NCBI GenBank assembly: GCA_963663035.1
Contig: OY760074.1
Coordinates: forward strand, 288,001-352,000
DNA length: 64,000 nt
From: Acidobacteriota bacterium
Lineage (GTDB): Bacteria > Acidobacteriota > UBA6911 > RPQK01 > JADFOI01
Direction: 5' to 3'
The stretch's first letter is position 1. Each line of letters starts with the position of its first letter. Position numbers and translations under genes: made by a program. Below the pieces are notes generated by a model. The model did no database searches, was not told the origin of the DNA, and was given only the letters and a program-made list of their open reading frames with translations. Of the stretch, positions 1 through 10,999 are shown in pieces.

Positions 1-2
1 TG

Positions 3-353
3 GGTGGAGCCCTACTGTCTCAAGGGAAGTGGGAAGAATCTTTACCGATCAATCTGCGCGCTGTGGAGATCCAACCGGACGATGCCCTGGCCCACTCCCA
101 ATTGGGGCAAAGTTACTTTTTTCTGGGTCAGCTGGACAGCGCCGAGAGACACTTGAAGCAGGCTAAGACGCTGGATCCCAGACATTTCTCCTACCCTCGG
201 CTGGTACTGGCTCAAATCTATCAGCTCAGACAGGACTCTGCATCCCTGGTGGGGGAGTTTGAGGAGTTCCTGCAGTACCACCCCGATTCGGAGCTTGTTC
301 CTCAGGTCACTGATTGGTTGAAGCAGGCTCGTGCCCGCGAGGGTGATCTCTAA
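3..353 (+). CDS. Tetratricopeptide-repeat protein, C-terminal part (5' end outside window)
   Basis: Frame open from position 3 (GGALLSQGKWEESLPINLRAVEIQPDDALAHSQLG...). TPR-like repeats PDDALAHSQLGQSYF, AKTLDP and LQYHPDS. Confidence 0.75.
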   Translation, partial: GGALLSQGKWEESLPINLRAVEIQPDDALAHSQLGQSYFFLGQLDSAERHLKQAKTLDPRHFSYPRLVLAQIYQLRQDSASLVGEFEEFLQYHPDSELVPQVTDWLKQARAREGDL

Positions 354-434
354 CCACGATTAACCATTGATTCTGACCACCTGAACGGTTAGCATGAGTG
401 AAGAAATCAACCGACCAAAAAGGAGCCAAGCGAG

Positions 435-2327
435 ATGAATAAGGCAATCTATCAAAGCATCGACCGGTATCTTTCCAAGCAGAGTTCCAGAAGGGATTTC
501 ATTCAAGCAGTGACTGCCGTGGGCATCTCCAGCCTGGCTGCCGAGTCCTTGCTGGCCTCTGTTCAGGTGGGCTTGGGAAGTGGCGATGAACTAGGCATGG
601 CTCCACCTCGGACGCTTGAAGGAACCGCCGGCTCCTTGCTGGTGGAGCAATTGAAAGCGGCTGGCGTGAAGTACATTTTCCATACCAACACCAGCGGCTT
701 GGTCACCATGACGGATGCAATCAACACAAATGAGATGCAGGTGATCATGCTCACTCATGAAGGACAAGCGGTATCAACGGCGCAGGGCTATGCCCTGGCC
801 AGTGGCGAGCTTGGGTATTTCATGGGAAGCAAGGTGGGAGTGGGGAATTCGATCAGCAATTTGTACAACGCTTGGAAGGATCGTACGCCGCTCATCATCA
901 GTTTTGGGCGTGCAGGTTTGAGAGGTCAGGCCGGACAGGATGGATTTGAAGAGTGGGATGACCATCTGAAACCCACAGAACCTTTTACTGCCTGGAGCTG
1001 GAGTTGTGTTGATGCCGGGTCCATGCCTCAGACGCTTCGCCGCGCCATGAAATTCGCATTTACACCTCCCGGGGCTCCTGTCACCTTGGACTTTCCATCC
1101 GATCTTCTCAGTGAAAAGGTGCGGTCTCCGATTTACAACATGGATCCAGCTCGTGTGCGTCCTGTGTTTCGCGCCAGTAGCGATCGGATCGAGAAAGCGG
1201 CCCAATTGTTGGCGGAAGCCAAGAGTCCTCTTTTTCTGGTGGGACCGGAGGTCACTCGCGGAAAAGCCAACCAGGCCATGTTGGATCTGGCTGAAAAGCT
1301 GTCCGTCCCCGTTTGTCAGGCGGATGGTCTTTTCTGTGACTTTCCCACCCATCATCCGCTCTTTATGCGGAGTTATTCCCGCAGCATGAGGTTCCCTCAA
1401 AACATCGATTTGGTGATCAACTTTGGAGCCAAGGGCGGAGGTTCGCCAGCAGGAGGCCGCTTGGTGCATGTGAGCAGCGATGCCGATATGATCGGAAAAA
1501 GGGGATACGCAGATCTTCCCATTCTCGCTCATGTCTCAACTGTGATCTCGGATCTTTCCGATGCCCTCGATGGCCTATTGACAGCGGATCGCATGAAGCG
1601 GCTGCGGTCGGAACGGTTGGTCAAGGCCAGTGACTTTAATCAGAAGCTGCGAACATCGAGAGAGATTGCACTGGAGGCGAAGTTTGACAGCACTCCAATG
1701 TCCTGGGAGCGGGTCGGTTTTGAGCTGGAAAAGGCCCTGGATAAGAATGCTGTCATCGTTCCAGAAATCGGCAGCGAGGGCCCCAAGGTGTTGGAAATCT
1801 TGAAGATGGGCCTTGAGGACAAATTGCAAATTGGACGCACAACTGGCTCAGCACTGGGTTGGGGGGTAGGAGCGGCACTGGGAGTGCAGTTGGCCCTACC
1901 GGAGCGCCAGGTCGTGGCGATGCAGGGTGACGGAGGTATTCTGTTCGGTCAAACCGAGACGCTGTGGAGCATTTCTCGCTATGATGCGCCTGTGCTCATC
2001 GTGGTGATGAATAACCACAGCTACAACGAAACCCGCAATCGCAACCTTTCCTTTGGTGGAAGGCAGTTCAAGAACGGCCAGGACTTAACCAGCTATTTGG
2101 GTAATCCCGACGTGGATTTTTCCAAGATAGCCGCTGCCTACAACATCCCAGGTGAGAAAGTCTTTGATCCCGACGATCTGGGTCCGGCCTTACAGCGGGC
2201 GCTAAAGACCATGCGCGAAGGCCGGCCCTATTTACTGGATCTGGAGGTGGAGCGGGACGGAATATTCAGTGAGAATACCTGGCATTCTCCATTCTCCATT
2301 GCTCAACTTCGCAACCAGAGAGGCTAA
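435..2327 (+). CDS. ThDP-dependent enzyme (benzoylformate decarboxylase/acetolactate synthase-like) with twin-arginine-like leader
   Basis: Catalytic Glu motif HEGQAVSTAQGYA, ThDP/Mg motif GDGG...MNN, GSALGWGVGAALG. N-terminus SRRDFIQAVTAVGISSLAA. AGGAG RBS upstream. Confidence 0.9.
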   Translation: MNKAIYQSIDRYLSKQSSRRDFIQAVTAVGISSLAAESLLASVQVGLGSGDELGMAPPRTLEGTAGSLLVEQLKAAGVKYIFHTNTSGLVTMTDAINTNEMQVIMLTHEGQAVSTAQGYALASGELGYFMGSKVGVGNSISNLYNAWKDRTPLIISFGRAGLRGQAGQDGFEEWDDHLKPTEPFTAWSWSCVDAGSMPQTLRRAMKFAFTPPGAPVTLDFPSDLLSEKVRSPIYNMDPARVRPVFRASSDRIEKAAQLLAEAKSPLFLVGPEVTRGKANQAMLDLAEKLSVPVCQADGLFCDFPTHHPLFMRSYSRSMRFPQNIDLVINFGAKGGGSPAGGRLVHVSSDADMIGKRGYADLPILAHVSTVISDLSDALDGLLTADRMKRLRSERLVKASDFNQKLRTSREIALEAKFDSTPMSWERVGFELEKALDKNAVIVPEIGSEGPKVLEILKMGLEDKLQIGRTTGSALGWGVGAALGVQLALPERQVVAMQGDGGILFGQTETLWSISRYDAPVLIVVMNNHSYNETRNRNLSFGGRQFKNGQDLTSYLGNPDVDFSKIAAAYNIPGEKVFDPDDLGPALQRALKTMREGRPYLLDLEVERDGIFSENTWHSPFSIAQLRNQRG

Positions 2328-2345
2328 GCGGAGGATTTCTGTTTT

Positions 2346-2927
2346 ATGGGTTGGAAGCACACTATTGGCCGATTATTTTTCCTCACCTGTGCTGGGCTAG
2401 CTGTTGTGGTGATGGCCTCTCAATATGTTGGCATGGGCAAGGGCTCTCCTGGCCCAACTACCAGTAACCTGTCGTCCCTTCTGCAAGAGCCAGAGGGCAG
2501 CCAAGTCTTTGGCCTGGCTTGCACGGGGTGTCATGGCCTGCGCGAAACGCAGCTCCAAGGAAAAACGGCTGATCAGTGGAGGAACACAGTGTACTCCATG
2601 ATCTCCAGGGGAGCCCCTTTGATGCCCGATGAGATTGAACCCCTGACCGAGTATCTGGCAGCTACCTATGGCTCCGATTCGCCTCCTCCCAGCTCAGGTG
2701 GCGAAAGCTCCCAGGCCGGAACAGCACTTCCTGAAGGCCCGGGTCGAAGCATCCTTGTAAGCAGCTGCGCCAGCTGCCATGGCCTGGACATACCCCTCAA
2801 CTCGCGCAAGTCTGAAGCTGAATGGAAACGGACGATCGGCGACATGATTGACTTTGGTGCCAAGGTAACGCCACAGGAGCAGGAAATTCTGGCCAAATAT
2901 GCAGCTCAGCATTTTGGCCGCAGGTGA
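2346..2927 (+). CDS. Exported diheme c-type cytochrome
   Basis: N-terminal hydrophobic segment, two CxxCH motifs (CTGCH, CASCH) in two similar domains, each with W...M downstream. Confidence 0.85.
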   Translation: MGWKHTIGRLFFLTCAGLAVVVMASQYVGMGKGSPGPTTSNLSSLLQEPEGSQVFGLACTGCHGLRETQLQGKTADQWRNTVYSMISRGAPLMPDEIEPLTEYLAATYGSDSPPPSSGGESSQAGTALPEGPGRSILVSSCASCHGLDIPLNSRKSEAEWKRTIGDMIDFGAKVTPQEQEILAKYAAQHFGRR

Positions 2928-4471
2928 CAGCTAGGTTGCGGATTCTGAGTACAATTTCTCCTGGGATTAGCAGATTGCGTTTACAGAGAATGAGACAGGG
3001 TCCAGCCTGGTCACCGAGCTTACTGCGGCTGGCTCTCCTGGTGGCAGTCCCGGCGTTGCTTCTGCTCTCCGCTGCGACTTTTCAGACTGAACCTTCCGCC
3101 GTCGAAACGAATTCTCCTTCTGGGCCAGCCACGGTTTTTCGAGTGCCCATTGAGGGCATGGTCGACCTCGGCATGGCTCCTTTCGTGGCCCGAGTGATCG
3201 AAGAAGCTTCTTCAGCGGAGAACGGCGTCGTGCTTCTGGATATCAACACCTTCGGCGGCCGGGTGGACGCGGCTGTGATGATACGGGACGAGCTCATCGG
3301 CAGCTCAATCCCTACCATCGCCTTCATCAACCCGCGGGCGATCTCGGCGGGAGCGTTGATTTCTCTGGCCTGCGAGACCATTGCCATCACCGACGGCGGT
3401 ACCATTGGAGCGGCAACCCCCATCACCGGTGGCGCAACAGAGGAGCCGGAGGTTGCGGACGAAAAATTCATGTCCTACATGCGCACCGAGATGCGAGCGA
3501 CGGCGGAACGCCGTGGTCGGCCCGGTGATGTCGCCGAGGCGATGGTGGACCCGGACGTCTCAATCGAAGGGCTGATCGAAAAGGGCAAGGTGCTGACCCT
3601 GACCACCGACGATGCCCTTCGGGTCCAGGTGGCCGACTTTCAAGCAGAAACGATGACCGATGTCCTCGCAGAGCTTGGATTTGCCGATGCCGTCATCGTC
3701 GATAGGGCGTTCAACTGGGCGGAGGAAGTGGGCCGGGCGGTGTCCAATCCGATAGTCAGCTCCTTCCTTCTCAGCCTCGGATTCCTGGGTATCATGCTTG
3801 AGCTCTACCAGCCCGGCTGGGGTATTCCCGGATCAGTTGGCCTTGCCTGTTTGCTCATCTTTTTCTTCGGGCATCAGGTGGTCCAACTTGCGGGCAACGA
3901 AGAGATTCTCCTGTTCGTGGTGGGGGTGGCGCTAGTGCTCTTAGAGGTGCTCGTGATCCCAGGCTTCGGCATCGCCGGGATAGCGGGCCTCGCCATCATA
4001 TTGGTGGCGGTGCTTCTCTCTCTGATTGGCCTCGACTTCCGGGTGTCCTGGGATCTGGGTTTCGTCAACCGGGCTCTGGTCATTCTTTCATCCTCGATCG
4101 TGATGACTCTGGGCGGCGGCTTCCTAATCTTGCGACTCCTTCCCGCGACAGGCGTGACACGACGTTTCGTGCTCAAGACGGCGCTCCGGGCGGAAGAAGG
4201 GTTCAGCTCGCATTCAGCGGAGACGGAGAGGGCCCTGCCTGAAGGAACGACAGGCACGGCACTAACCGACCTCAGACCGGCAGGAAAGATCCGTGCCGAG
4301 GGAAAACGTGTGGACGCGGTCTCCGAGGGGGGCTTCATCCAGGTGGGCGCGAAGGTGGTTATCGTCTCCTGGCGATCCGGTGAAGCGGTAGTGCGCCAGC
4401 AAGTGTCCCCCGATGAAGAGTTCGAGGGCGACCCCACCCAGGACACCAACCAAGACGAGGTGGAATCGTGA
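2924..4471 (+). CDS. nfeD: NfeD family membrane-bound serine protease (long form, YqeZ-like); start uncertain
   Basis: ClpP-like domain (DINTFGGRVD, AISAGALI, TIGAATP), TM block, C-terminal OB domain LTDLRPAGK...DAVSEG. Confidence 0.9.
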   Translation: MTARLRILSTISPGISRLRLQRMRQGPAWSPSLLRLALLVAVPALLLLSAATFQTEPSAVETNSPSGPATVFRVPIEGMVDLGMAPFVARVIEEASSAENGVVLLDINTFGGRVDAAVMIRDELIGSSIPTIAFINPRAISAGALISLACETIAITDGGTIGAATPITGGATEEPEVADEKFMSYMRTEMRATAERRGRPGDVAEAMVDPDVSIEGLIEKGKVLTLTTDDALRVQVADFQAETMTDVLAELGFADAVIVDRAFNWAEEVGRAVSNPIVSSFLLSLGFLGIMLELYQPGWGIPGSVGLACLLIFFFGHQVVQLAGNEEILLFVVGVALVLLEVLVIPGFGIAGIAGLAIILVAVLLSLIGLDFRVSWDLGFVNRALVILSSSIVMTLGGGFLILRLLPATGVTRRFVLKTALRAEEGFSSHSAETERALPEGTTGTALTDLRPAGKIRAEGKRVDAVSEGGFIQVGAKVVIVSWRSGEAVVRQQVSPDEEFEGDPTQDTNQDEVES

Positions 4472-4980
4472 CCGACCACTTCGTCATTGTTGCCGCCCTG
4501 CTGGTGGCAGGTTACGTGTTGATGGCGATGGAAGTCTTCGTCATCCCCGGAGTTGGAGTCGGCGGAATCGGTGGAAGCCTCTGTCTGGGCGCGGGCTGCT
4601 GGCTCGCCTTCCGCTGGTTCGGCCCGCTGCAGGGGACTGTCGCTGTGGTCTTTGTCGTGGCGACGACGACCGCATTTATGATCTGGATTCCTCGCAGCCG
4701 TTACGGTCGCGATATCGTGCATAAGACGACCCTGGCCGAAGCATACGCGGGAGATTCGAACTTAACCGTCGGGCAGATCGGCGAGGCGGAGTCCGATCTG
4801 CGGCCTGCAGGGATCGCTCGGTTCGGTGAGCAACGGGAGAGCGTAGTCACCGAAGGCGACTACGTACCCGCCGGTAGCCTCGTCTCGGTGATCGAGGTTC
4901 GAGGTTCAGAAATTGTCGTGGAATTCGCACAGAAAACCACAAACGGGGTACCGCACAAGGAACCCCAGGGAGGTAGCTGA
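4468..4980 (+). CDS. NfeD family protein, short form (TM + OB-fold)
   Basis: [15 protein letters not shown] membrane motif and [12 protein letters not shown]...VVTEGDY; start overlaps the nfeD stop. Confidence 0.85.
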
Positions 4981-5972
4981 TGGAAGGTTCACTTTTTGCC
5001 CTAACCTTGTTCGCTCTGGTGATCTTTGGTTTCATCATGTACTTTGTTCCCCTCGGACTATGGATCGCCGCCTTCTCATCCGGCGCCTACGTGGGGATCG
5101 GTACGCTCATAGCGATGCGTTTACGCCGTGTGCCTCCCGGGGTCATCGTCAAGCCGCGCATCAGTGCCGTCAAAGCGGGGCTCTCGATTAGCGTCGACGA
5201 GCTGGAGGCTCATTATCTCGCCGGAGGGAACGTGGAACGTGTGGTCAACGCACTCATCTCGGCCGACAAAGCGAAGATGGAGATCGACTTCGCCAGAGCC
5301 ACGGCTATTGATCTGGCCGGTCGCGACGTTTTAGAAGCGGTTCAGATGAGTGTCAATCCGAAAGTGATCACAACACCAAAGGTAGCTGCTGTAGCCAAGG
5401 ACGGCATCCAGCTCATCGCCCAAAGCCGGGTCACAGTGCGCGCTGACCTCGAGCGCCTGGTCGGCGGTGCTGGAGAAGAGACTATCGTGGCAAGGGTCGG
5501 AGAAGGCGTGGTCTCTACCATCGGCTCCGCCGAGACCCACAAAAAAGTCTTGGAGAACCCCGACCAGATTTCCAAAACCGTTCTCGCCAAAGGTCTCGAT
5601 GCAGGCACGGCTTTCCAGATCCTCTCGATCGACATTGCCGATGTGGACGTGGGAGCCAACATCGGCGCCAAGCTGCAAACAGAGCAGGCGGAGGCCGACA
5701 AGCAAATCGCCCAGGCCCGTGCCGAAGGTCGTCGCGCTATGGCGGTCGCCCAGGAGCAGGAGATGAGAGCGCGGGTGCACGAGATGCGGGCCAAGGTCGT
5801 GGAAGCCGAGGCCGAGGTCCCCTTGGCCATGTCGCAAGCCTTCCGAGATGGCAATTTGGGTGTGATGGACTACTACAACATGAAGAACATCGCCTCGGAT
5901 ACGGGAATGCGAGATTCCATCTCACGGTCCGTAGAGCCGGAAGACGACTCCGGGAAGGGTGAGAATGAGTAA
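4980..5972 (+). CDS. floA: Flotillin-like protein FloA (YqfA/UPF0365)
   Basis: [57 protein letters not shown]; follows nfeD as in Bacillus yqeZ-yqfA. Confidence 0.95.
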
Positions 5973-6186
5973 GAAAGTGATTGAGCGCCGCCGGGCCAGC
6001 CGGATTCTTTCGGCCATTCCCGAATCACCGCTTCTGGTCAAACCGTTGACTGACCCGGCGACGCTGCTGGACCGTCTGGTGCTCACGCTTGCGCTGGCTC
6101 CTCCGCAGGCCTTGGCGAGAAGAAAGACACCAGCAGCGAGTCGGGTCGATAACCAGAAGACGCCTGGCGAAGTGAGTCGAGGCTGA
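5959..6186 (+). CDS. Small hypothetical protein in the floA operon
   Basis: ORF overlapping the floA end and filling the gap to the next gene; no recognisable motif. Confidence 0.4.
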
Positions 6187-6192
6187 GAATCG

Positions 6193-6612
6193 ATGGAATT
6201 CAGTGATCTCGTCTATTTAGTTGTCTTCATCCTGTGGCTTCTCAAGGATCTCTTTTCTAAAAAGAAGCCGTCCGCCCCGCCCAGCGAGTCCCGCCCAATT
6301 GTGCCCGTCGACGCGCATCCCTCGTTCCAGAGAGTTCCCAAGCCTCCAACCTTAAAGGCGGCTTCAACAGAGGCGGCTGAAACGGAAGCCGTTTTGGAAG
6401 CGCCAGAGCGACGCCAAGTGGTGCATCAGGGGTTCTATAGGTCGGTCCCCAGGAAGGAACCCAAGAGAGTCCCAGCCGAAGTGCGGCCGGTTCCACCAGA
6501 GCCGGTCCCACCGGAGTCGGTCCGCATGGACCGATCGATGATCGCCCGTCAAGTCACGGAAGCCTTGCTTCTGGGCGACATCTTGCTCAGACCGCGGAGT
6601 CGGGGTAGGTGA
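6193..6612 (+). CDS. Single-TM Pro-rich hypothetical protein (positionally YqfB-like)
   Basis: N-terminal TM helix, disordered linker, C-terminal EALLLGDILLRPR motif. Confidence 0.6.
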   Translation: MEFSDLVYLVVFILWLLKDLFSKKKPSAPPSESRPIVPVDAHPSFQRVPKPPTLKAASTEAAETEAVLEAPERRQVVHQGFYRSVPRKEPKRVPAEVRPVPPEPVPPESVRMDRSMIARQVTEALLLGDILLRPRSRGR

Positions 6613-6689: not shown

Positions 6690-7874
6690 TTGTCCGATGA
6701 GGTATTTCCTTTGAAGAAGCTTCTTTTGATTCTATTTGTGGGAATGTTCCTGGCGGTGCTGGGTTTTCGTCTTTACCAGGAGCTGTCTGGAGGCGAGGTT
6801 GCGGCAGGCGGCGGACCCTTTGGAGGTGGCAGACCCTTTGAAGGTGAGGCGCCCTCCTTGCTGGTGGACATGGCTGTAGTCCAGACGCATCGCTTTGAAA
6901 CGACGCTTGAAATCCTGGGCGAGCTGGAACCCCAGGCTGAGGTGGCCGTGATGTCTCGGGTCAGCGGTCGTCTGCAGCAGGTTTTGGTGGAGCGCGGAGA
7001 GGCAGTCAAGGAAGGACAGCTGCTGGCCGTGGTGGACGATGTGGACTTACAGCAGCAGACCCACCGGGCCGAGGCGGCTATTGCCATTGCCCGTGCTGGA
7101 GTCAGCCGGGAACAGGCCACCTCCCGCAATTTACTCATCCAGGTTGAACGCTATCGGGACCTCCATAGAGAGGCACTGATTTCAACGCAGGAGATGGAAG
7201 AGCTGGAAAGCCGAGTGAGCGTCGCCCAGGCCCAGCTGGAGCTGGCGATGGCTCAAGTCCAGCAGGCCGAGGCCTCTTTAAGTGAGCTGAGAGTCCAGCA
7301 GGAACAAACCCAAATCTATTCGCCCCTGGAAGGATTCGTGGGTACCCGCTACCTGGATCCGGGAGCTCTGGTGAGTCCCAGTGTGTCGATTTTGTCTGTC
7401 TTGCAAGTGAGTCGGCTCAAGACGGTGGTACCTGTGTCTGAGAGAGCAATCCGACAGGTGCGGGTCGGCTTGCCTGCTGAGATTACTGTCGATGCCTATC
7501 CGGATCAAATACACAAGGGCACCCTCACCCGCATCACTCCTTTCCTGAACCCGGACACTCGCAGTGTGGACGTGGAAATCGAAGTTGCAAATCCCAACCA
7601 TACGTTAAAACCGGGAATGTTCGCCCGTGTGAAGATTGATGCCAGAATTCCCCGGGATGCTCTCAGCATTCCGCGCTCTGCACTCCTGACTCGCGGGAGT
7701 CAAAAAGGGGTGTATTTGCTCGACGAGGACATGACCACTGTCTTTCAATCCATCCAGATTGGCCAGATCAAAGGGGACGTGGTGGAGGTGCTTGACGGGT
7801 TAGAAGAAGGTGATGGAGTTGTGAGTGCGGGAGCTCAGAGCCTGAACGAGGGGGACCTGGTGAGGCTGCCATGA
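6690..7874 (+). CDS. RND efflux periplasmic adaptor (membrane fusion protein)
   Basis: SRVSGRLQQVLVERGEAVKEGQLL lipoyl motif, coiled hairpin, IYSPLEGFV, LKPGMFARV. Confidence 0.93.
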   Translation: MSDEVFPLKKLLLILFVGMFLAVLGFRLYQELSGGEVAAGGGPFGGGRPFEGEAPSLLVDMAVVQTHRFETTLEILGELEPQAEVAVMSRVSGRLQQVLVERGEAVKEGQLLAVVDDVDLQQQTHRAEAAIAIARAGVSREQATSRNLLIQVERYRDLHREALISTQEMEELESRVSVAQAQLELAMAQVQQAEASLSELRVQQEQTQIYSPLEGFVGTRYLDPGALVSPSVSILSVLQVSRLKTVVPVSERAIRQVRVGLPAEITVDAYPDQIHKGTLTRITPFLNPDTRSVDVEIEVANPNHTLKPGMFARVKIDARIPRDALSIPRSALLTRGSQKGVYLLDEDMTTVFQSIQIGQIKGDVVEVLDGLEEGDGVVSAGAQSLNEGDLVRLP

Positions 7875-10800
7875 ATCTTCCTGATTTAGCGATTCGTCGT
7901 CCCGTTTTCATCACTGTTGTTTTTCTCATCGTTACGCTCCTGGGTGGGATCTCATTCTGGCAGCTTCCGGTCGATTTGATGCCGGATGTCTCTTTCCCGA
8001 CCCTTTCGGTTCAAACCAGTTATTCCGGTGTTGGGCCTGAGGAGATGGAAGAGCTGGTCAGCATTCCACTGGAGCGGGCACTTTCCTCGACTCCGGGGGT
8101 TGAGGAAATCACTTCCACATCCTCGGAGGGAAGCAGTCAGATTCGTTTGTCCTTTTCCTGGGGCACTGACCTGGATTCTGCCTCTGACGAAATCCGAACC
8201 CGGCTCGATCGGGTACGTGGCCAACTTCCCGAAGATGCCAGCGCTCCCACCGTATTCAAGTTTGATGTGAGTGCCTTCCCCATCATGTTTTTGGGTATTT
8301 CCGGGGACATGAATCCACGAGAGCTGAGGGAGTTTACCGACAGGCAGCTTCAATATCGGTTTGAACGGATTCCGGGAGTTGCCCAGGCCGATGTCTGGGG
8401 CGGATTAGAGCGTGAGATCCACGTTAATCTGGACCGTGCCAAGCTGCATGCACTTCGGATTAGCCCCGCCCAGGTCATGGCGGCGTTGCGCCGCGAGAAC
8501 GTGAATGAGCCGGTTGGAAAGGTTGTGGAAGGCGATTTTGAAGTGCTGATGCGCACTGCAGGAGAGTATGTCTCTCTGGGGGAGATCGAGCGAACCATGG
8601 TGACGCTGCGACAGGGACAGCCGGTGTACGTGGACGACATTGCCCAGGTGGAGGACAGTTCACAGGAAATTCGAAATGTGGTGCGAGTCAATGGCCTCCC
8701 TGGACTCCGGATGGGGGTCTGGAAGCAGGCAGGAGTCAACACGGTGGAGGTGGCCAAAGAAGTCCAGAAGGAAATCGAGAGAGCCAACCGTGATTTTCCA
8801 CAGATTCAGATTAGCTCGATTATCGACACTTCCACCTTCATAGAAAGTGCCGTGGCAAACGTGAGGAACGTTGCCCTGTATGGCTCCGTTCTGGCGGTTT
8901 TCATCCTCCTGCTTTTTCTTCGGAATTTACGAAGTACGCTGGTGGTCGCTATTTCCATTCCTATCTCGGTGATCGCCGCCTTCGGTTTGATGTATTTCTA
9001 CGGGTTTACTTTGAACATCATCACCTTCGGAGGGATGGCCTTGGGAGTCGGCGTTCTGGTGGATAACGCCATCGTCGTGCTGGAGAACATCTTCCGACAC
9101 CGACAGGATGGCATGGAGAAGAAGGAAGCAGCCCGCCAGGGCACCCAAGAAGTGGCCATGGCCATCACCGCCTCCACTTTGACGACCATTGTTGTGTTCT
9201 TACCGGTCGTCTTTATAAGTGGTGTGGCGGGAATCATTTTTCAGCAGCTGGCCTGGGTGGTGTCTTTTTCGCTCTTCAGTTCACTGTTGGTGTCCCTCAC
9301 CCTGATTCCCCTTCTTTCCAGTCGATTTGTTCGGGTCAGGGAACCCAATCCTGACAGCTGGAGCTACGGGCTGGTTCACAGAATGTCTGTGTGGTTGGAA
9401 GCTCTCGACAAAAGTTATGCCCGCGCCATTGGGTTCTCTCTGAGGCATCGGGGGCTGATCATTGGCGCAACCCTGGCCTTGTTGTTTTCCAGTTTCTTGC
9501 TCCTGCCATTTATCGGGTTGGAGTTGGAGCCACAAACGGATCAGGGTGAGGTTCAAATTAATCTGGAGCTGCCGGAAGGAACCCGGCTCGAGGTCACCGA
9601 GCAGTTTGCTCTTCGTGCCGAGGAGATTATTCAGGAGCAGGTACCGGAGGTCGTAAACCTCATGACCGAGGTGGGCTCAAGCGGTGGTTGGCAAAGTGCC
9701 AGTGTCCACACGGCCTCGATCCGTTTGAGTCTGGTTCCTCAGTCGGAGCGAGTGCGGAGTAGTCAGGAAATTGCTCAGGCCCTGCAGCCGGCTTTTGACC
9801 AGTTCCCCGGTGTGATTTCACGAATCCGTGCCGGAGGAGGCGGTTTTATGATGCGAAGGGGTCAGGGTGGTGGAGACCGCCTGTCCCTGAACATTCGAGG
9901 CTATGACATATCCGAGAGTGGCGCCCTGGCGGTCCGGCTCAAGAGGTTGATGGAATCGATTGAAGGGGTCTCGGATGCCCGTCTCAGTCGAAGTGCTGGG
10001 CGTCCCGAAAGCCAAATTCTGATCGACCGAGACAAGGCGGCAACCATGGGACTTTCAGTCTCTGATATCGCCACCACCATCCGGACCAGTGTTGGGGGTA
10101 CAACGGCCACTTATTACAGAGAAGGAGGCGAGGAGTACCGGATTCTGGTCCGTTACCAGGAAAAAGACCGGTTGAGCAGCGAAGATGTGATGGCCATTCC
10201 CATCCAGACCCCCAGCGGACTGGTGGTCCCGCTCCGATCTCTGGTCCGATTGGAACGCAGTGAGGGCCCTCTGGCGATCCAGCGAAAGGATCAGCAGAGA
10301 ATCGTCACTGTTTCGGGCAACCTCTCAGGATCGCGTGACCTGGGATCTGTTGTGGCGGAGTTAGAAGGAAAAATTCGCTCTCTGAATGTGCCTCCTGGTA
10401 TGGCCATTGTTTTTACCGGTGAGTGGGAAGAACAGCAGGAGGCATTCTTCTACCTCCAGCTCAGTTTCCTCCTGGCCGTGCTCCTGGTTTACCTGGTCAT
10501 GGCCGCCCAGTTCGAGTCCTTCAAATATCCCTTTCTGATCATGTTCTCCCTACCCCTGGCCTCCATTGGGGTGATCATGGCGCTCTTTCTGACCGATACG
10601 ACCTTTAGTATTCAAGCTTTCGTAGGCGTGATCATGCTGGTGGGGATCGCCGTGAACAATGCCATCGTGATGGTGGATTATGTCCTGCAGCTCCAGCGCA
10701 ATCACGGATTCTCTCTGGTGGATTCTCTGGTGACGGGAGGGCGTCGGCGACTGCGCCCCATCCTGATGACAACGCTCACCACAGTTTTAGGACTGACGCC

Positions 10801-10999
10801 CATGGCCCTGGGCATTGGCGAGGGATCAGAACTGCAGGCTCCAATGGCTCGGGTTCTGATTGGCGGGCTCATTTCCTCTACCTTCATTACCCTGTTCCTT
10901 GTACCCACTCTCTTTATGACCATGGAGAGAGTGCGCTTCGGGCGTGGCCAGAAAAAAATGACCTCTGCAGCCGAACCTGCCATGGGCCAGGCCTCGTGA
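7871..10999 (+). CDS. RND efflux permease (AcrB/AcrD/AcrF family)
   Basis: 1042 aa; [44 protein letters not shown]. Confidence 0.95.

Follow-up and report, generated by a model that had tools for sequence, protein, structure and literature searches.

A putative Tat-exported ThDP-dependent enzyme encoded next to a diheme cytochrome c in an Acidobacteriota genome

We analysed a 64,000-nucleotide stretch of DNA from an Acidobacteriota bacterium (the window), near the start of which two adjacent genes encode a ThDP-dependent enzyme with a twin-arginine leader and a diheme c-type cytochrome. The pair probably represents a periplasmic ThDP-dependent oxidoreductase, exported by the Tat pathway and passing electrons from a 2-oxoacid or an aldehyde to cytochrome c, together with its dedicated electron acceptor.

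The ThDP enzyme and its leader

The first gene (435..2327, + strand) encodes a ThDP-dependent enzyme precursor of 630 aa. A Shine-Dalgarno-like AGGAG (421..425, + strand), read from the sequence, lies 9 nt 5' of its ATG at position 435. Pfam searches identified TPP_enzyme_N (residues 64-175, 74 bits), TPP_enzyme_M (residues 252-374, 60 bits) and TPP_enzyme_C (residues 471-602, 95 bits), all above their cut-offs and together the three-domain make-up of the decarboxylase-type (POX/ALS/BFDC) ThDP family. The original prediction had described a ThDP enzyme with intact HE and GDG..NN motifs, and we found both. The cofactor-activating Glu of the HE motif (H108-E109; E109 codon at 759..761, + strand) was invariant in a wide alignment of 30 ThDP homologues (A1), in an alignment of 9 closer sequences (A2) and in a further alignment (A3). 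The ThDP/Mg2+-binding motif G498-D499-G500 ... N526-N527 (1926..2015, + strand) lies inside the TPP_enzyme_C match with the spacing GDG-X26-NN, in keeping with the pattern GDG-X(24-27)-NN plus cofactor Glu, and its D499, G500, N526 and N527 were invariant across A1 and A3. Judged by its domains and invariant motifs, the ThDP enzyme is catalytically intact. Its AlphaFold2 model had a mean pLDDT of 92.9.

Compared with leaderless relatives, the only family-specific parts of the enzyme are its leader and a C-terminal tail. The tail (residues 609-630, xxTWHxxFSIAxxR; 2259..2324, + strand) occurs only in the leader-bearing family and is missing from 12 aligned leaderless relatives; its W616 and S621 are nearly invariant. 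The helix at residues 384-416 was considered as a family-specific docking insertion and rejected; BFDC lacks this helix, yet leaderless relatives have it.

The leader (residues 1-44; 435..566, + strand) consists of a helical n-region, the twin-arginine motif S18-R19-R20-D21-F22 (486..500, + strand), an h-region and the end LLAS-VQ. SRRDF is followed by the stretch FIQAVTAVGISSLAA, with 15 uncharged residues, and the N-terminal extension with SRRDF and a hydrophobic stretch that had been noted earlier was thus present. Searched with the leader alone, the NCBIfam model TIGR01409 (TAT_signal_seq) gave 18.4 bits, above its curated cut-off of 16.7, and the leader of a paralogue in the same genome likewise exceeded this cut-off, with 21.0 bits. 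The Pfam TAT_signal model (PF10518) gave 12.8 bits, below its cut-off of 22.7. The leader shows the pattern of a Tat substrate, an S/T-R-R-x-F-L-K type motif near the N-terminus with a moderately hydrophobic uncharged stretch behind it.

We investigated the conservation of the leader among homologues. The R19 and R20 columns were invariant in A1 and A3, an invariance that is selected, both alignments having been drawn from RR-bearing sequences. At 80 unselected related loci on genome contigs, RR was present in 79 and SRRxF in 63, the lone locus without RR being a 5'-truncated match. Among the homologues listed, 104 of 120 contained RR, and the other 16 were fragments or had starts called inside the leader. 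The majority (101) of these 104 RR-bearing homologues had SRRxF followed by an uncharged run of at least 12 residues, and 72 had AxA 14-42 residues past RR. The leader was kept in homologues down to ~27% identity, and leaderless relatives aligned only from about residue 64. In a FastTree phylogeny, 90 leader-bearing sequences were separated from 10 leaderless relatives with a support of 99. Over the 44 leader codons, synonymous differences exceeded non-synonymous differences in all 11 comparisons with close relatives, indicating that the leader is translated. With the AGGAG before position 435, this places the true start upstream of RR. None of the computational findings that would have spoken against the original prediction was obtained, be it a leader that is not Tat-like or not conserved, a start downstream of RR or a cytochrome unlinked in other genomes. 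The genome encodes the Tat machinery, with TatC (214.5 bits) and two TatA/B/E genes (75.1 and 68.7 bits), and a crude motif scan of its other open reading frames detected comparable leaders, including those of a molybdenum aldehyde-oxidase-type subunit and a PQQ dehydrogenase confirmed with Pfam. These results suggest that the leader looks like a Tat signal.

Instead of serving export, the extension could form a structured element or tether the protein to the membrane, with the enzyme in the cytoplasm or at the cytoplasmic face of the membrane and the adjacency of the cytochrome regulatory or coincidental. AlphaFold2 modelled the leader as three helices with a pLDDT of 81-88, which is above what we expect for a disposable signal peptide, the n-region preceding RR is unusually conserved, and the h-region is only weakly hydrophobic and contains a Glu (E37); these features, and the PF10518 score, favour a non-export role. 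The TIGR01409 match, the SRRxF, uncharged-run and AxA counts among the homologues listed and the comparable leaders in the same genome all argue against it. So does the nature of the conserved neighbour and predicted binding partner, a c-type cytochrome, since c-type cytochromes mature only outside the cytoplasm. We consider a non-export role very improbable.

The diheme cytochrome c and its linkage to the ThDP gene

The second gene (2346..2927, + strand) starts 18 nt past the ThDP stop codon, where an exported-type cytochrome gene with two CxxCH motifs had been predicted, and encodes a diheme c-type cytochrome precursor of 193 aa. It is preceded by a Shine-Dalgarno-like GGAGG (2330..2334, + strand), read from the sequence. 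The N-terminus is basic and then hydrophobic, and residues ~1-33 (2346..2444, + strand) form a putative signal peptide or membrane anchor with a K/R n-region, LFFLTCAGLAVVVMA, a pattern that is kept in the alignment A4. Heme 1 would be attached at C59-T-G-C62-H63 (2520..2534, + strand) with Met85 (nt 2598-2600) as the axial ligand, and heme 2 at C141-A-S-C144-H145 (2766..2780, + strand) with Met167 (nt 2844-2846). Both CxxCH motifs, M85 and M167 were invariant among 44 cytochrome sequences. Pfam Cytochrome_CBB3 matched with 34.4 bits against a cut-off of 27, and CxxCH, a distal Met and an export signal, the features of a class I c-type cytochrome, are all present. The genome also contains cytochrome c maturation and assembly genes.

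The best NCBIfam match of the cytochrome was the SorB sulfite-dehydrogenase cytochrome (E 3.4e-13), and the SorB equivalog (NF052246) was not reached, with 49.5 bits against a cut-off of 93. The heme module matched weakly to SorB and to the heme domain of quinohemoprotein amine dehydrogenase. Other periplasmic dehydrogenases in the genome also use this module, which lies behind a GMC dehydrogenase operon encoding a flavoprotein and a small subunit that bears a Tat leader, and homologues of the cytochrome come with one, two or three copies of the module.

We examined the linkage of the two genes across genomes. A homologous cytochrome was found within 3 kb of the ThDP gene at 43 of the 61 well-flanked loci, and at 37 of them it lay on the same strand at a distance of 300 nt or less, in both gene orders; it was absent within 3 kb at the remaining 18. 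Among the neighbour families the cytochrome ranked first, occurring at 53 of 92 loci, and every copy shared the strand of the ThDP gene (33 downstream of it, 24 upstream). At the junctions, stop and start codons often overlapped or almost touched, and the pairing spanned phyla. The deepest branches of the leader-bearing family had no nearby cytochrome. The genome itself encodes a second ThDP-cytochrome pair, and its only two full-length copies of the cytochrome each lie 3' of a ThDP gene. A third leader-bearing ThDP paralogue has no cytochrome within 1.5 kb and sits, judged by eye from the sequences, among ABC- and TRAP-type transporter genes. Co-conservation of the cytochrome in other genomes, a check suggested with the original prediction, was therefore observed, and it is not universal.

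Uncultured Acidobacteriota commonly carry members of the family, which were also found in Binatia, Myxococcota and Proteobacteria. The recurrence of the RR motif and of the gene pairing over dozens of genomes is more than chance, as judged from these comparisons. Periplasmic location looks like a trait of the family and the cytochrome like a trait of a large sub-group, and the cytochrome appears to be the dedicated partner of the ThDP enzyme.

A promoter and terminator scan of positions 1-6200 found fewer sites than in shuffled sequences and none between the ThDP and cytochrome genes, a result with no bearing on where the operon begins or ends. RNA-library contigs from two studies (2224-2410 and 2202-2429) run across the boundary between the two genes and are identical to it, although such contigs may derive from DNA and are no proof of a joint transcript. 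RNA-library contigs cover parts of the stretch, with none over positions 435-990, which include the leader, and give a weak hint that the gene pair is expressed.

Other genes recurred near the ThDP gene in sub-clades of the family, encoding outer-membrane beta-barrel proteins (24 loci), DUF6152 proteins (14 loci), UbiD (10 loci), dienelactone hydrolase (7 loci), Rieske/LigXa-type oxygenases (6 loci) and EutA (6 loci). These neighbours were dropped as hints to the substrate, since each is limited to sub-clades and missing from the locus studied here. A third gene of the system was also considered, but no small same-strand ORF of at least 60 aa recurred at 18 loci inspected by eye or among the 25 largest neighbour clusters, a comparison that smaller or more divergent genes would escape.

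Predicted complex and comparison with known enzymes

Structure prediction was performed for the ThDP enzyme with the cytochrome. The pair obtained ipSAE values of 0.88, 0.83 and 0.87, against 0.00 for the best control, at least 88% of contacts were shared between runs, and the partner pLDDT was at least 76. When the tool was calibrated, 58 of 80 solved complexes reached the mark, as did 2 of 110 mismatched pairs; this calibration holds only roughly here since custom alignments and two riding hemes were used. The complex was modelled with one ThDP monomer rather than the physiological dimer or tetramer. On the cytochrome side, the predicted interface comprises residues 56-62 and 79-97 of the heme-1 domain. 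On the enzyme side, residues 447-454 and 535-545 flank G446, E532, T533 and R536, which align with the active-site-lining BFDC residues T377, A460, L461 and F464, and residues 608-610 at the C-terminal tail also fall within the interface. The two proteins are thus predicted to bind each other, with the first heme domain docking near the active site of the ThDP enzyme.

We compared the enzyme with characterized ThDP enzymes. The closest solved folds were 4-hydroxybenzoylformate decarboxylase, benzaldehyde lyase and glyoxylate carboligase, at 22-24% identity. The best matches were to the BFDC/benzaldehyde lyase group (profile E 7e-92; Foldseek E ~1e-37), and BFDC/4-hydroxybenzoylformate decarboxylase (MdlC; 1bfd, 7orx, 6qsi) and benzaldehyde lyase (2ag0, 2uz1) have the same three-domain ThDP fold. 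Features in common with BFDC are the cofactor Glu (E109, corresponding to E47 of the BFDC QE motif), GDG...NN, and Y530 and R534, which correspond to BFDC Y458 and R462. His70 and His281, residue names that appear in PDB titles, are catalytic in BFDC, whereas in the ThDP enzyme His70 aligns with G131 and the segment bearing His281, an insertion in BFDC, is deleted. The His of a conserved FPTxHP motif in the family aligns with BFDC H246. Identity as a benzoylformate decarboxylase (EC 4.1.1.7) was ruled out by the absence of both catalytic His residues. The BFDC equivalog (NF005485) was not reached (211.1 bits against a cut-off of 493), nor was any NCBIfam equivalog cut-off among the 25 best models. 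BFDC and benzaldehyde lyase are cytoplasmic and non-oxidative, whereas the family described here adds the Tat leader, the C-terminal tail and the cytochrome partner.

An exported but non-oxidative decarboxylase, lyase or carboligase would accord with these closest folds, the cytochrome then being structural only or working for a different dehydrogenase of the periplasm, such as one oxidising the product aldehyde. A candidate for such a dehydrogenase is encoded divergently ~1.3 kb upstream, where a molybdenum aldehyde-oxidase-type large subunit with a Tat leader and a [2Fe-2S] subunit occur without a cytochrome gene of their own, and the loci and deep branches that lack the cytochrome point in the same direction. 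However, no molybdenum enzyme family was among the 25 largest neighbour clusters listed, each present in at least five loci, and it is the ThDP gene itself that the cytochrome tracks across phyla, whichever of the two comes first and often with stop and start codons that overlap or almost touch. The predicted interface, moreover, is on the ThDP enzyme, next to positions that line the active site, and the enzyme has no counterpart of the catalytic BFDC residues His70 and His281. On balance, a non-oxidative enzyme is unlikely.

A different ThDP reaction was also considered, in which the released product rather than the enamine is oxidised, as in an Xsc-like desulfonation yielding sulfite, or in which the cytochrome merely activates or protects the enzyme by redox. 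The SorB match of the cytochrome, a score of 171 bits for the ThDP enzyme against the sulfoacetaldehyde acetyltransferase model and the location of the third paralogue among transporter genes are in line with such a reaction. Both matches are nevertheless far below their cut-offs (676 bits for sulfoacetaldehyde acetyltransferase), no SorA-type molybdenum sulfite dehydrogenase was among the recurrent neighbours listed, and structure prediction has the heme domain docking on the ThDP enzyme itself. We regard this alternative as having only a slim chance.

Oxidation of a ThDP enamine with transfer of electrons to the respiratory chain is known from PoxB/pyruvate oxidase, formerly named 'pyruvate dehydrogenase (cytochrome)', which oxidises the hydroxyethyl-ThDP enamine. 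PoxB is a pyruvate:quinone oxidoreductase that carries FAD in its middle domain, works at the cytoplasmic face and reduces quinone. It belongs to the same superfamily as the ThDP enzyme, whereas the latter has an export leader and a c-type cytochrome as acceptor, and no flavin site was identified in it. PoxB was not among the 60 best solved matches. Judged by eye, the stretch LFLVGPEV of the ThDP enzyme resembles the flavin-free BFDC type and not the Gly-rich flavin-binding type, and no flavin or Fe-S mediator is evident in the enzyme-cytochrome pair. The closest mechanistic analogy to a direct ThDP-to-heme route is offered by the pyruvate/2-oxoacid:ferredoxin oxidoreductases (PFOR/OFOR), in which a metal centre close to the ThDP enamine, with no flavin, takes its electrons one at a time. 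These enzymes belong to another ThDP family with another architecture, use [4Fe-4S] clusters and ferredoxin, are cytoplasmic and require CoA; in a domain search, these traits ([4Fe-4S], ferredoxin, CoA) were absent from the pair.

The arrangement of a Tat-exported cofactor enzyme with an adjacently encoded, small Sec-exported cytochrome c would be shared with SorAB, flavocytochrome c (FccAB, PchCF), quinohemoprotein amine dehydrogenase and three-subunit GMC dehydrogenases. To our knowledge, the catalytic cofactor in those complexes is molybdenum, FAD or quinone, and never ThDP.

Several observations count against the oxidoreductase reading: its closest relatives of solved structure (BFDC and benzaldehyde lyase) catalyse non-oxidative reactions, the gene linkage is incomplete, the leader pLDDT is high and Pfam TAT_signal is below its cut-off.

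Proposed mechanism and significance

For the favoured oxidoreductase, we infer the following route. The ThDP protein would fold in the cytoplasm, take up ThDP-Mg2+ and oligomerise, with the ThDP sites between subunits, and the SRRDF leader would direct export of the folded protein by the Tat pathway. The diheme cytochrome c would leave the cytoplasm unfolded and have its heme attached in the periplasm, where its heme-1 domain would dock on the diphosphate-binding (PP) domain of the enzyme, beside the mouth of the active site. The ThDP ylide would attack a 2-oxoacid, with loss of CO2, or an aldehyde to form a hydroxyalkyl-ThDP enamine. This enamine may be oxidised in two one-electron steps, the electrons passing from heme 1 to heme 2 and on to the respiratory chain, and the acyl-ThDP would then be hydrolysed to a carboxylic acid.

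We know of no characterised precedent for direct oxidation of a ThDP enamine by heme c. Tentatively, and at somewhat less than an even chance, the pair may represent a third class of ThDP oxidoreductase beside the flavin-linked pyruvate oxidases and the Fe-S-linked 2-oxoacid:ferredoxin oxidoreductases. In this class, a tightly bound cytochrome would take the electrons of the enamine directly through a c-type heme, with neither flavin nor Fe-S, and would do so in the periplasm after Tat export of the ThDP-loaded oligomer, such that electrons from extracytoplasmic 2-oxoacids or aldehydes would enter an aerobic respiratory chain.

As far as we know, ThDP enzymes count as cytoplasmic proteins, and the cofactors usually listed for Tat substrates do not include ThDP. 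A full-text literature search, judged by titles and the opening lines of abstracts, returned no report of an exported ThDP enzyme. The family is a concrete and testable target, with two genes and a spectroscopic read-out, and flavin-free oxidative ThDP catalysts may be of interest to biocatalysis. If the proposal is correct, ThDP would be added to the cofactors known to cross the membrane with Tat substrates, transfer from the ThDP enamine to heme c would be a new electron-transfer route, and the pair would constitute a new periplasmic respiratory dehydrogenase. The family could also account for the use of carbonyl compounds by these soil, sediment and marine bacteria without prior import.

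The ThDP enzyme and its leader

The ThDP enzyme gene (435-2327, + strand) is an ORF of 630 aa preceded by an AGGAG (421-425, + strand) 9 nt ahead of its ATG. Its assignment to the ThDP enzymes was borne out: Pfam found all three ThDP domains, TPP_enzyme_N at residues 64-175, TPP_enzyme_M at 252-374 and TPP_enzyme_C at 471-602, and E109, D499-G500 and N526-N527 were invariant in A1, an alignment of 30 homologues with 27-71% identity. No equivalog cut-off was attained in the NCBIfam scan; the top model was PRK08327, 'thiamine pyrophosphate-requiring protein' (218 bits vs a cut-off of 456), and the model for benzoylformate decarboxylase (BFDC) scored 211 bits (cut-off 493). A BFDC-type active site was ruled out, since BFDC His70 is replaced by G131 and the loop bearing His281 is missing. 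A non-rigorous check of the ThDP enzyme found no evidence of a flavin site. The family is patchy across the phylum, with a match at E <= 1e-80 in 9 of 201 sampled genomes.

Nothing in ordinary family members corresponds to the first ~60 residues, and leaderless relatives (~555 aa) could be aligned only from query residue 64-73. This extension contains S18-R-R-D-F22 and then an uncharged stretch, FIQAVTAVGISSLAA. On the leader alone, the NCBI TAT_signal_seq model gave 18.4 bits, passing its cut-off of 16.7, and gave 21.0 bits on the leader of a paralogue; Pfam TAT_signal gave 12.8, under its cut-off of 22.7. An exhaustive representative search found leader-bearing proteins (~630-660 aa) down to ~27-30% identity. 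They also share a C-terminal tail (residues 609-630, with W616 nearly invariant) that is absent from 12 leaderless relatives.

We examined how widely the leader is kept. Among the best 120 of 407 matches, obtained from 8000 scored candidates, 104 had an RR motif within the first 60 residues, followed by an uncharged run of at least 12 residues in 101 and by an AxA motif 14-42 residues past the RR in 72. The other 16 were shorter, being either fragments or sequences beginning inside or after the h-region, as expected if their starts were mis-called. R19, R20 and F22 were among the only 21 invariant columns of A1, a set that also includes the ThDP residues, although RR invariance in A1 and in a further alignment, A3, is circular because both were chosen from RR-bearing sequences. 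The conservation expected by the original prediction was found in an unselected set of 80 genome_contigs loci retrieved by enzyme-core patterns: xRRx[FLIVM] lay close to the ORF start in 79, in the form SRRxF in 63 of these, and the sole miss was a match beginning at residue 290. The start codon also proved to lie upstream of the RR, as predicted. All close relatives in the codon comparison share the ATG position, and synonymous differences exceeded non-synonymous ones across the 44 leader codons in 11 of 11 comparisons, indicating at the codon level that the leader is translated.

The n-region ahead of the RR (xxLxxYLxxxxSRRxF) is conserved family-wide. AlphaFold2 modelled residues 1-44 as three helices (pLDDT 81-88) and residues 45-58 as disordered, an oddly confident model for a signal peptide. 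The modelled helices may correspond to a conserved conformation for chaperone binding or autoinhibition, or may simply stem from the conserved alignment. Some known Tat substrates with dedicated chaperones have long signals whose n-regions are conserved; no dedicated chaperone gene for the ThDP enzyme was found here.

Genes for TatC, two TatA/B proteins and cytochrome c assembly proteins are present in the source genome. By a crude motif scan, comparable leaders occur on its molybdenum aldehyde-oxidase-type large subunit, a PQQ dehydrogenase and the small subunit of a GMC dehydrogenase operon, among other ORFs. We consider it very probable that the ThDP enzyme is exported by Tat, and a non-exported enzyme most improbable.

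Two other enzymes showed similar N-termini. Dienelactone hydrolase genes, one in a related database locus (L030:7925-8812) and one on the source genome's own contig (G000:C1:192888, + strand), encode an N-terminus that matches Pfam YqhI-like (PF23678) and the NCBIfam YghX hydrolase model and is laid out like the ThDP leader, with a conserved helix, RRxFL and a weakly hydrophobic stretch; four related loci have such a gene after a cytochrome-less ThDP gene. Downstream of a deep-branching leader-bearing ThDP gene, a 385-aa ORF (L002:3449-4606) has its own RR leader (TFTRRGFLKG) and looks by eye like a HisC-type aminotransferase; should that hold, a Tat-like leader would be present on a second cofactor enzyme that is normally cytoplasmic.

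The diheme cytochrome and its linkage to the ThDP gene

The cytochrome gene (2346-2927, + strand; 193 aa) starts 18 nt past the ThDP stop codon, behind a GGAGG (2330-2334, + strand). Its product has a basic and then hydrophobic N-terminus and two CxxCH motifs. C59, C62, H63, M85, C141, C144, H145 and M167, together with W78 and W160, were invariant in 44 homologues, indicating two His/Met-ligated heme modules of ~80 residues each. Both the SorB sulfite-dehydrogenase cytochrome (E 3.4e-13, under cut-off) and the quinohemoprotein amine dehydrogenase heme domain are weak matches to these modules.

ORFs were called in 92 loci, and neighbours within 4 kb of the ThDP gene were clustered. The cytochrome formed the largest neighbour family (57 ORFs in 53 loci), always on the strand of the ThDP gene, 33 downstream and 24 upstream. 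The predicted linkage in other genomes was recovered for a majority: of 61 genome_contigs loci whose flanks reached 900 nt or more on each side, 37 had the cytochrome within 300 nt and 43 within 3 kb, and 18 had none. Partners contain the same heme module once, twice or three times, with CxxxCH as the motif in three loci; these (L045:7977-8486, L047:7651-8163 and L049:7977-8486) carry CGNSCH or CGQSCH rather than CxxCH and a C-terminal extension that is helix-hairpin-helix-like by eye.

A FastTree of 90 leader-bearing and 10 leaderless sequences, excluding five partial ORFs of <560 aa, separated the leader-bearing sequences from the leaderless ones at a branch supported at 99. Cytochrome linkage, in both gene orders, was spread across most of this clade; its deepest branches lacked the cytochrome, with flanks there of only 1.5 kb. 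The details of this quick tree, which has several long branches, should not be over-read.

Parts of the ThDP gene are matched by RNA-library contigs from three studies; contigs from two of these cross from the ThDP gene into the cytochrome gene with no differences (2224-2410 and 2202-2429). This gives a weak hint that the two genes are expressed and co-transcribed, as RNA libraries can contain DNA and one contig is not proof of one transcript.

Related modules and neighbouring genes

The source genome contains a second pair (L093:9118-11629, G000:C1:3425120-3427628, - strand), consisting of a Tat-leader ThDP gene 59% identical to the first and, 14 nt later, a 206-aa diheme cytochrome c. By eye, a leaderless 570-aa ThDP-type gene (L093:7305-9017, + strand) is convergent to this pair, and a Tat-leader FAD-type protein is encoded ~6 kb away. 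A third leader-bearing paralogue (L094:9071-10963, G000:C1:2903097-2904956, - strand; 36% identical, leader MRELVAQYLSKSISRRGF...) has no cytochrome c within 1.5 kb and sits between what appear to be ABC-type and TRAP-type transporter genes. A cytochrome search of the genome returned full-length copies only in the two pairs; ten weaker matches were single heme modules within other proteins. One of these comes behind a GMC dehydrogenase and its Tat-leader small subunit, in an operon (L096:2946-6031, G000:C1:1357445-1360530, - strand) encoding a GMC oxidoreductase, a 236-aa Tat-leader protein without a Pfam match and a 269-aa cytochrome c. This is the classic layout of a three-subunit periplasmic flavoprotein dehydrogenase, and its cytochrome is made of the heme module seen in the ThDP partner.

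Immediately upstream of the window lie genes for a large subunit that binds molybdopterin (MoCoBD_1/2) and has a Tat leader, and for a [2Fe-2S] small subunit, of the aldehyde-oxidase/IorAB type (L095:6535-9146, G000:C1:284535-287146, - strand), divergent from the TPR, ThDP and cytochrome genes and with no cytochrome gene of their own nearby. Directly 3' of the cytochrome gene, two NfeD-family genes (515 and 170 aa) and a 330-aa gene resembling, by eye, an SPFH/flotillin partner (2924-5972) showed no sign of belonging to the ThDP module; the GTG of the first NfeD ORF overlaps the cytochrome stop, but its true start may be an internal ATG, near 2991, that has a signal-like sequence. At 6690-10999, a membrane-fusion-protein-like gene (394 aa) precedes a 1042-aa RND-type transporter gene; by eye, the two look like an ordinary efflux pair.

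The closest relatives of the locus carry, 150-1900 nt upstream of the ThDP gene, a gene for a flavocytochrome c-like FAD_binding_2 protein of ~600 aa with three CxxCH motifs (L013:2220-4064, L017:3948-5792, L020:4030-5850, L023:2273-4081); no such gene occupies the corresponding position in the window. Other clades have neighbours such as UbiD, a Rieske/LigXa-type oxygenase, dienelactone hydrolase and outer-membrane barrels, which are absent at this locus; they hint that the substrate could be an aromatic or an imported compound.

Predicted complex and proposed electron transfer

The mature ThDP enzyme (residues 56-630, one monomer) was folded with cytochrome residues 40-193, using our own alignments and with two hemes riding along. 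The ipSAE was 0.88, 0.83 and 0.87, against 0.00 for the best control; agreement in contacts between runs was at least 88%, with partner pLDDT of at least 76. The mark used was reached by 58 of 80 solved complexes vs 2 of 110 mismatched pairs, a calibration that is only rough with user alignments and riding ligands as here. We are not aware of any solved structure of a ThDP enzyme with a cytochrome for the model to have remembered. The predicted interface involves the heme-1 module of the cytochrome (56-62, 66-71, 79-97, 170-173) and enzyme residues 312-320, 404-416, 424-425, 447-454, 535-545 and 608-610, the last being the beginning of the family-specific tail. By profile alignment, G446, E532, T533 and R536 of the enzyme correspond to BFDC T377, A460, L461 and F464, which are named as mutated in PDB titles and belong to the lining of the substrate pocket. 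The prediction therefore puts heme 1 at the active-site mouth, on its PP-domain side. We consider it probable that the two proteins form a complex.

On balance we favour oxidative electron transfer from the ThDP enzyme to the cytochrome; some other ThDP reaction coupled only indirectly is very improbable. The best solved relatives, at 22-24% identity, are BFDC, 4-hydroxybenzoylformate decarboxylase, BbmA, glyoxylate carboligase and benzaldehyde lyase; an exported, non-oxidative lyase or decarboxylase is unlikely. In the favoured oxidative scheme, which we consider somewhat likely as a whole, the enzyme would be exported by Tat loaded with ThDP and would oxidise a 2-oxoacid or aldehyde in the periplasm; two electrons would pass singly to heme 1 and on to heme 2 of the cytochrome bound to it, and hydrolysis of the acyl-ThDP would give the acid. 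Both artificial one-electron acceptors and the Fe-S clusters of PFOR are able to oxidise ThDP enamines, which makes the proposed ThDP-to-heme chemistry plausible.

Our full-text literature search, with subscription journals largely outside its scope, turned up no account of a ThDP enzyme that is exported or paired with a cytochrome c. The pair may be viewed as a variant on ThDP oxidoreductases and on periplasmic dehydrogenase-cytochrome c pairs; in a bolder reading, it would represent a third class of ThDP oxidoreductase.
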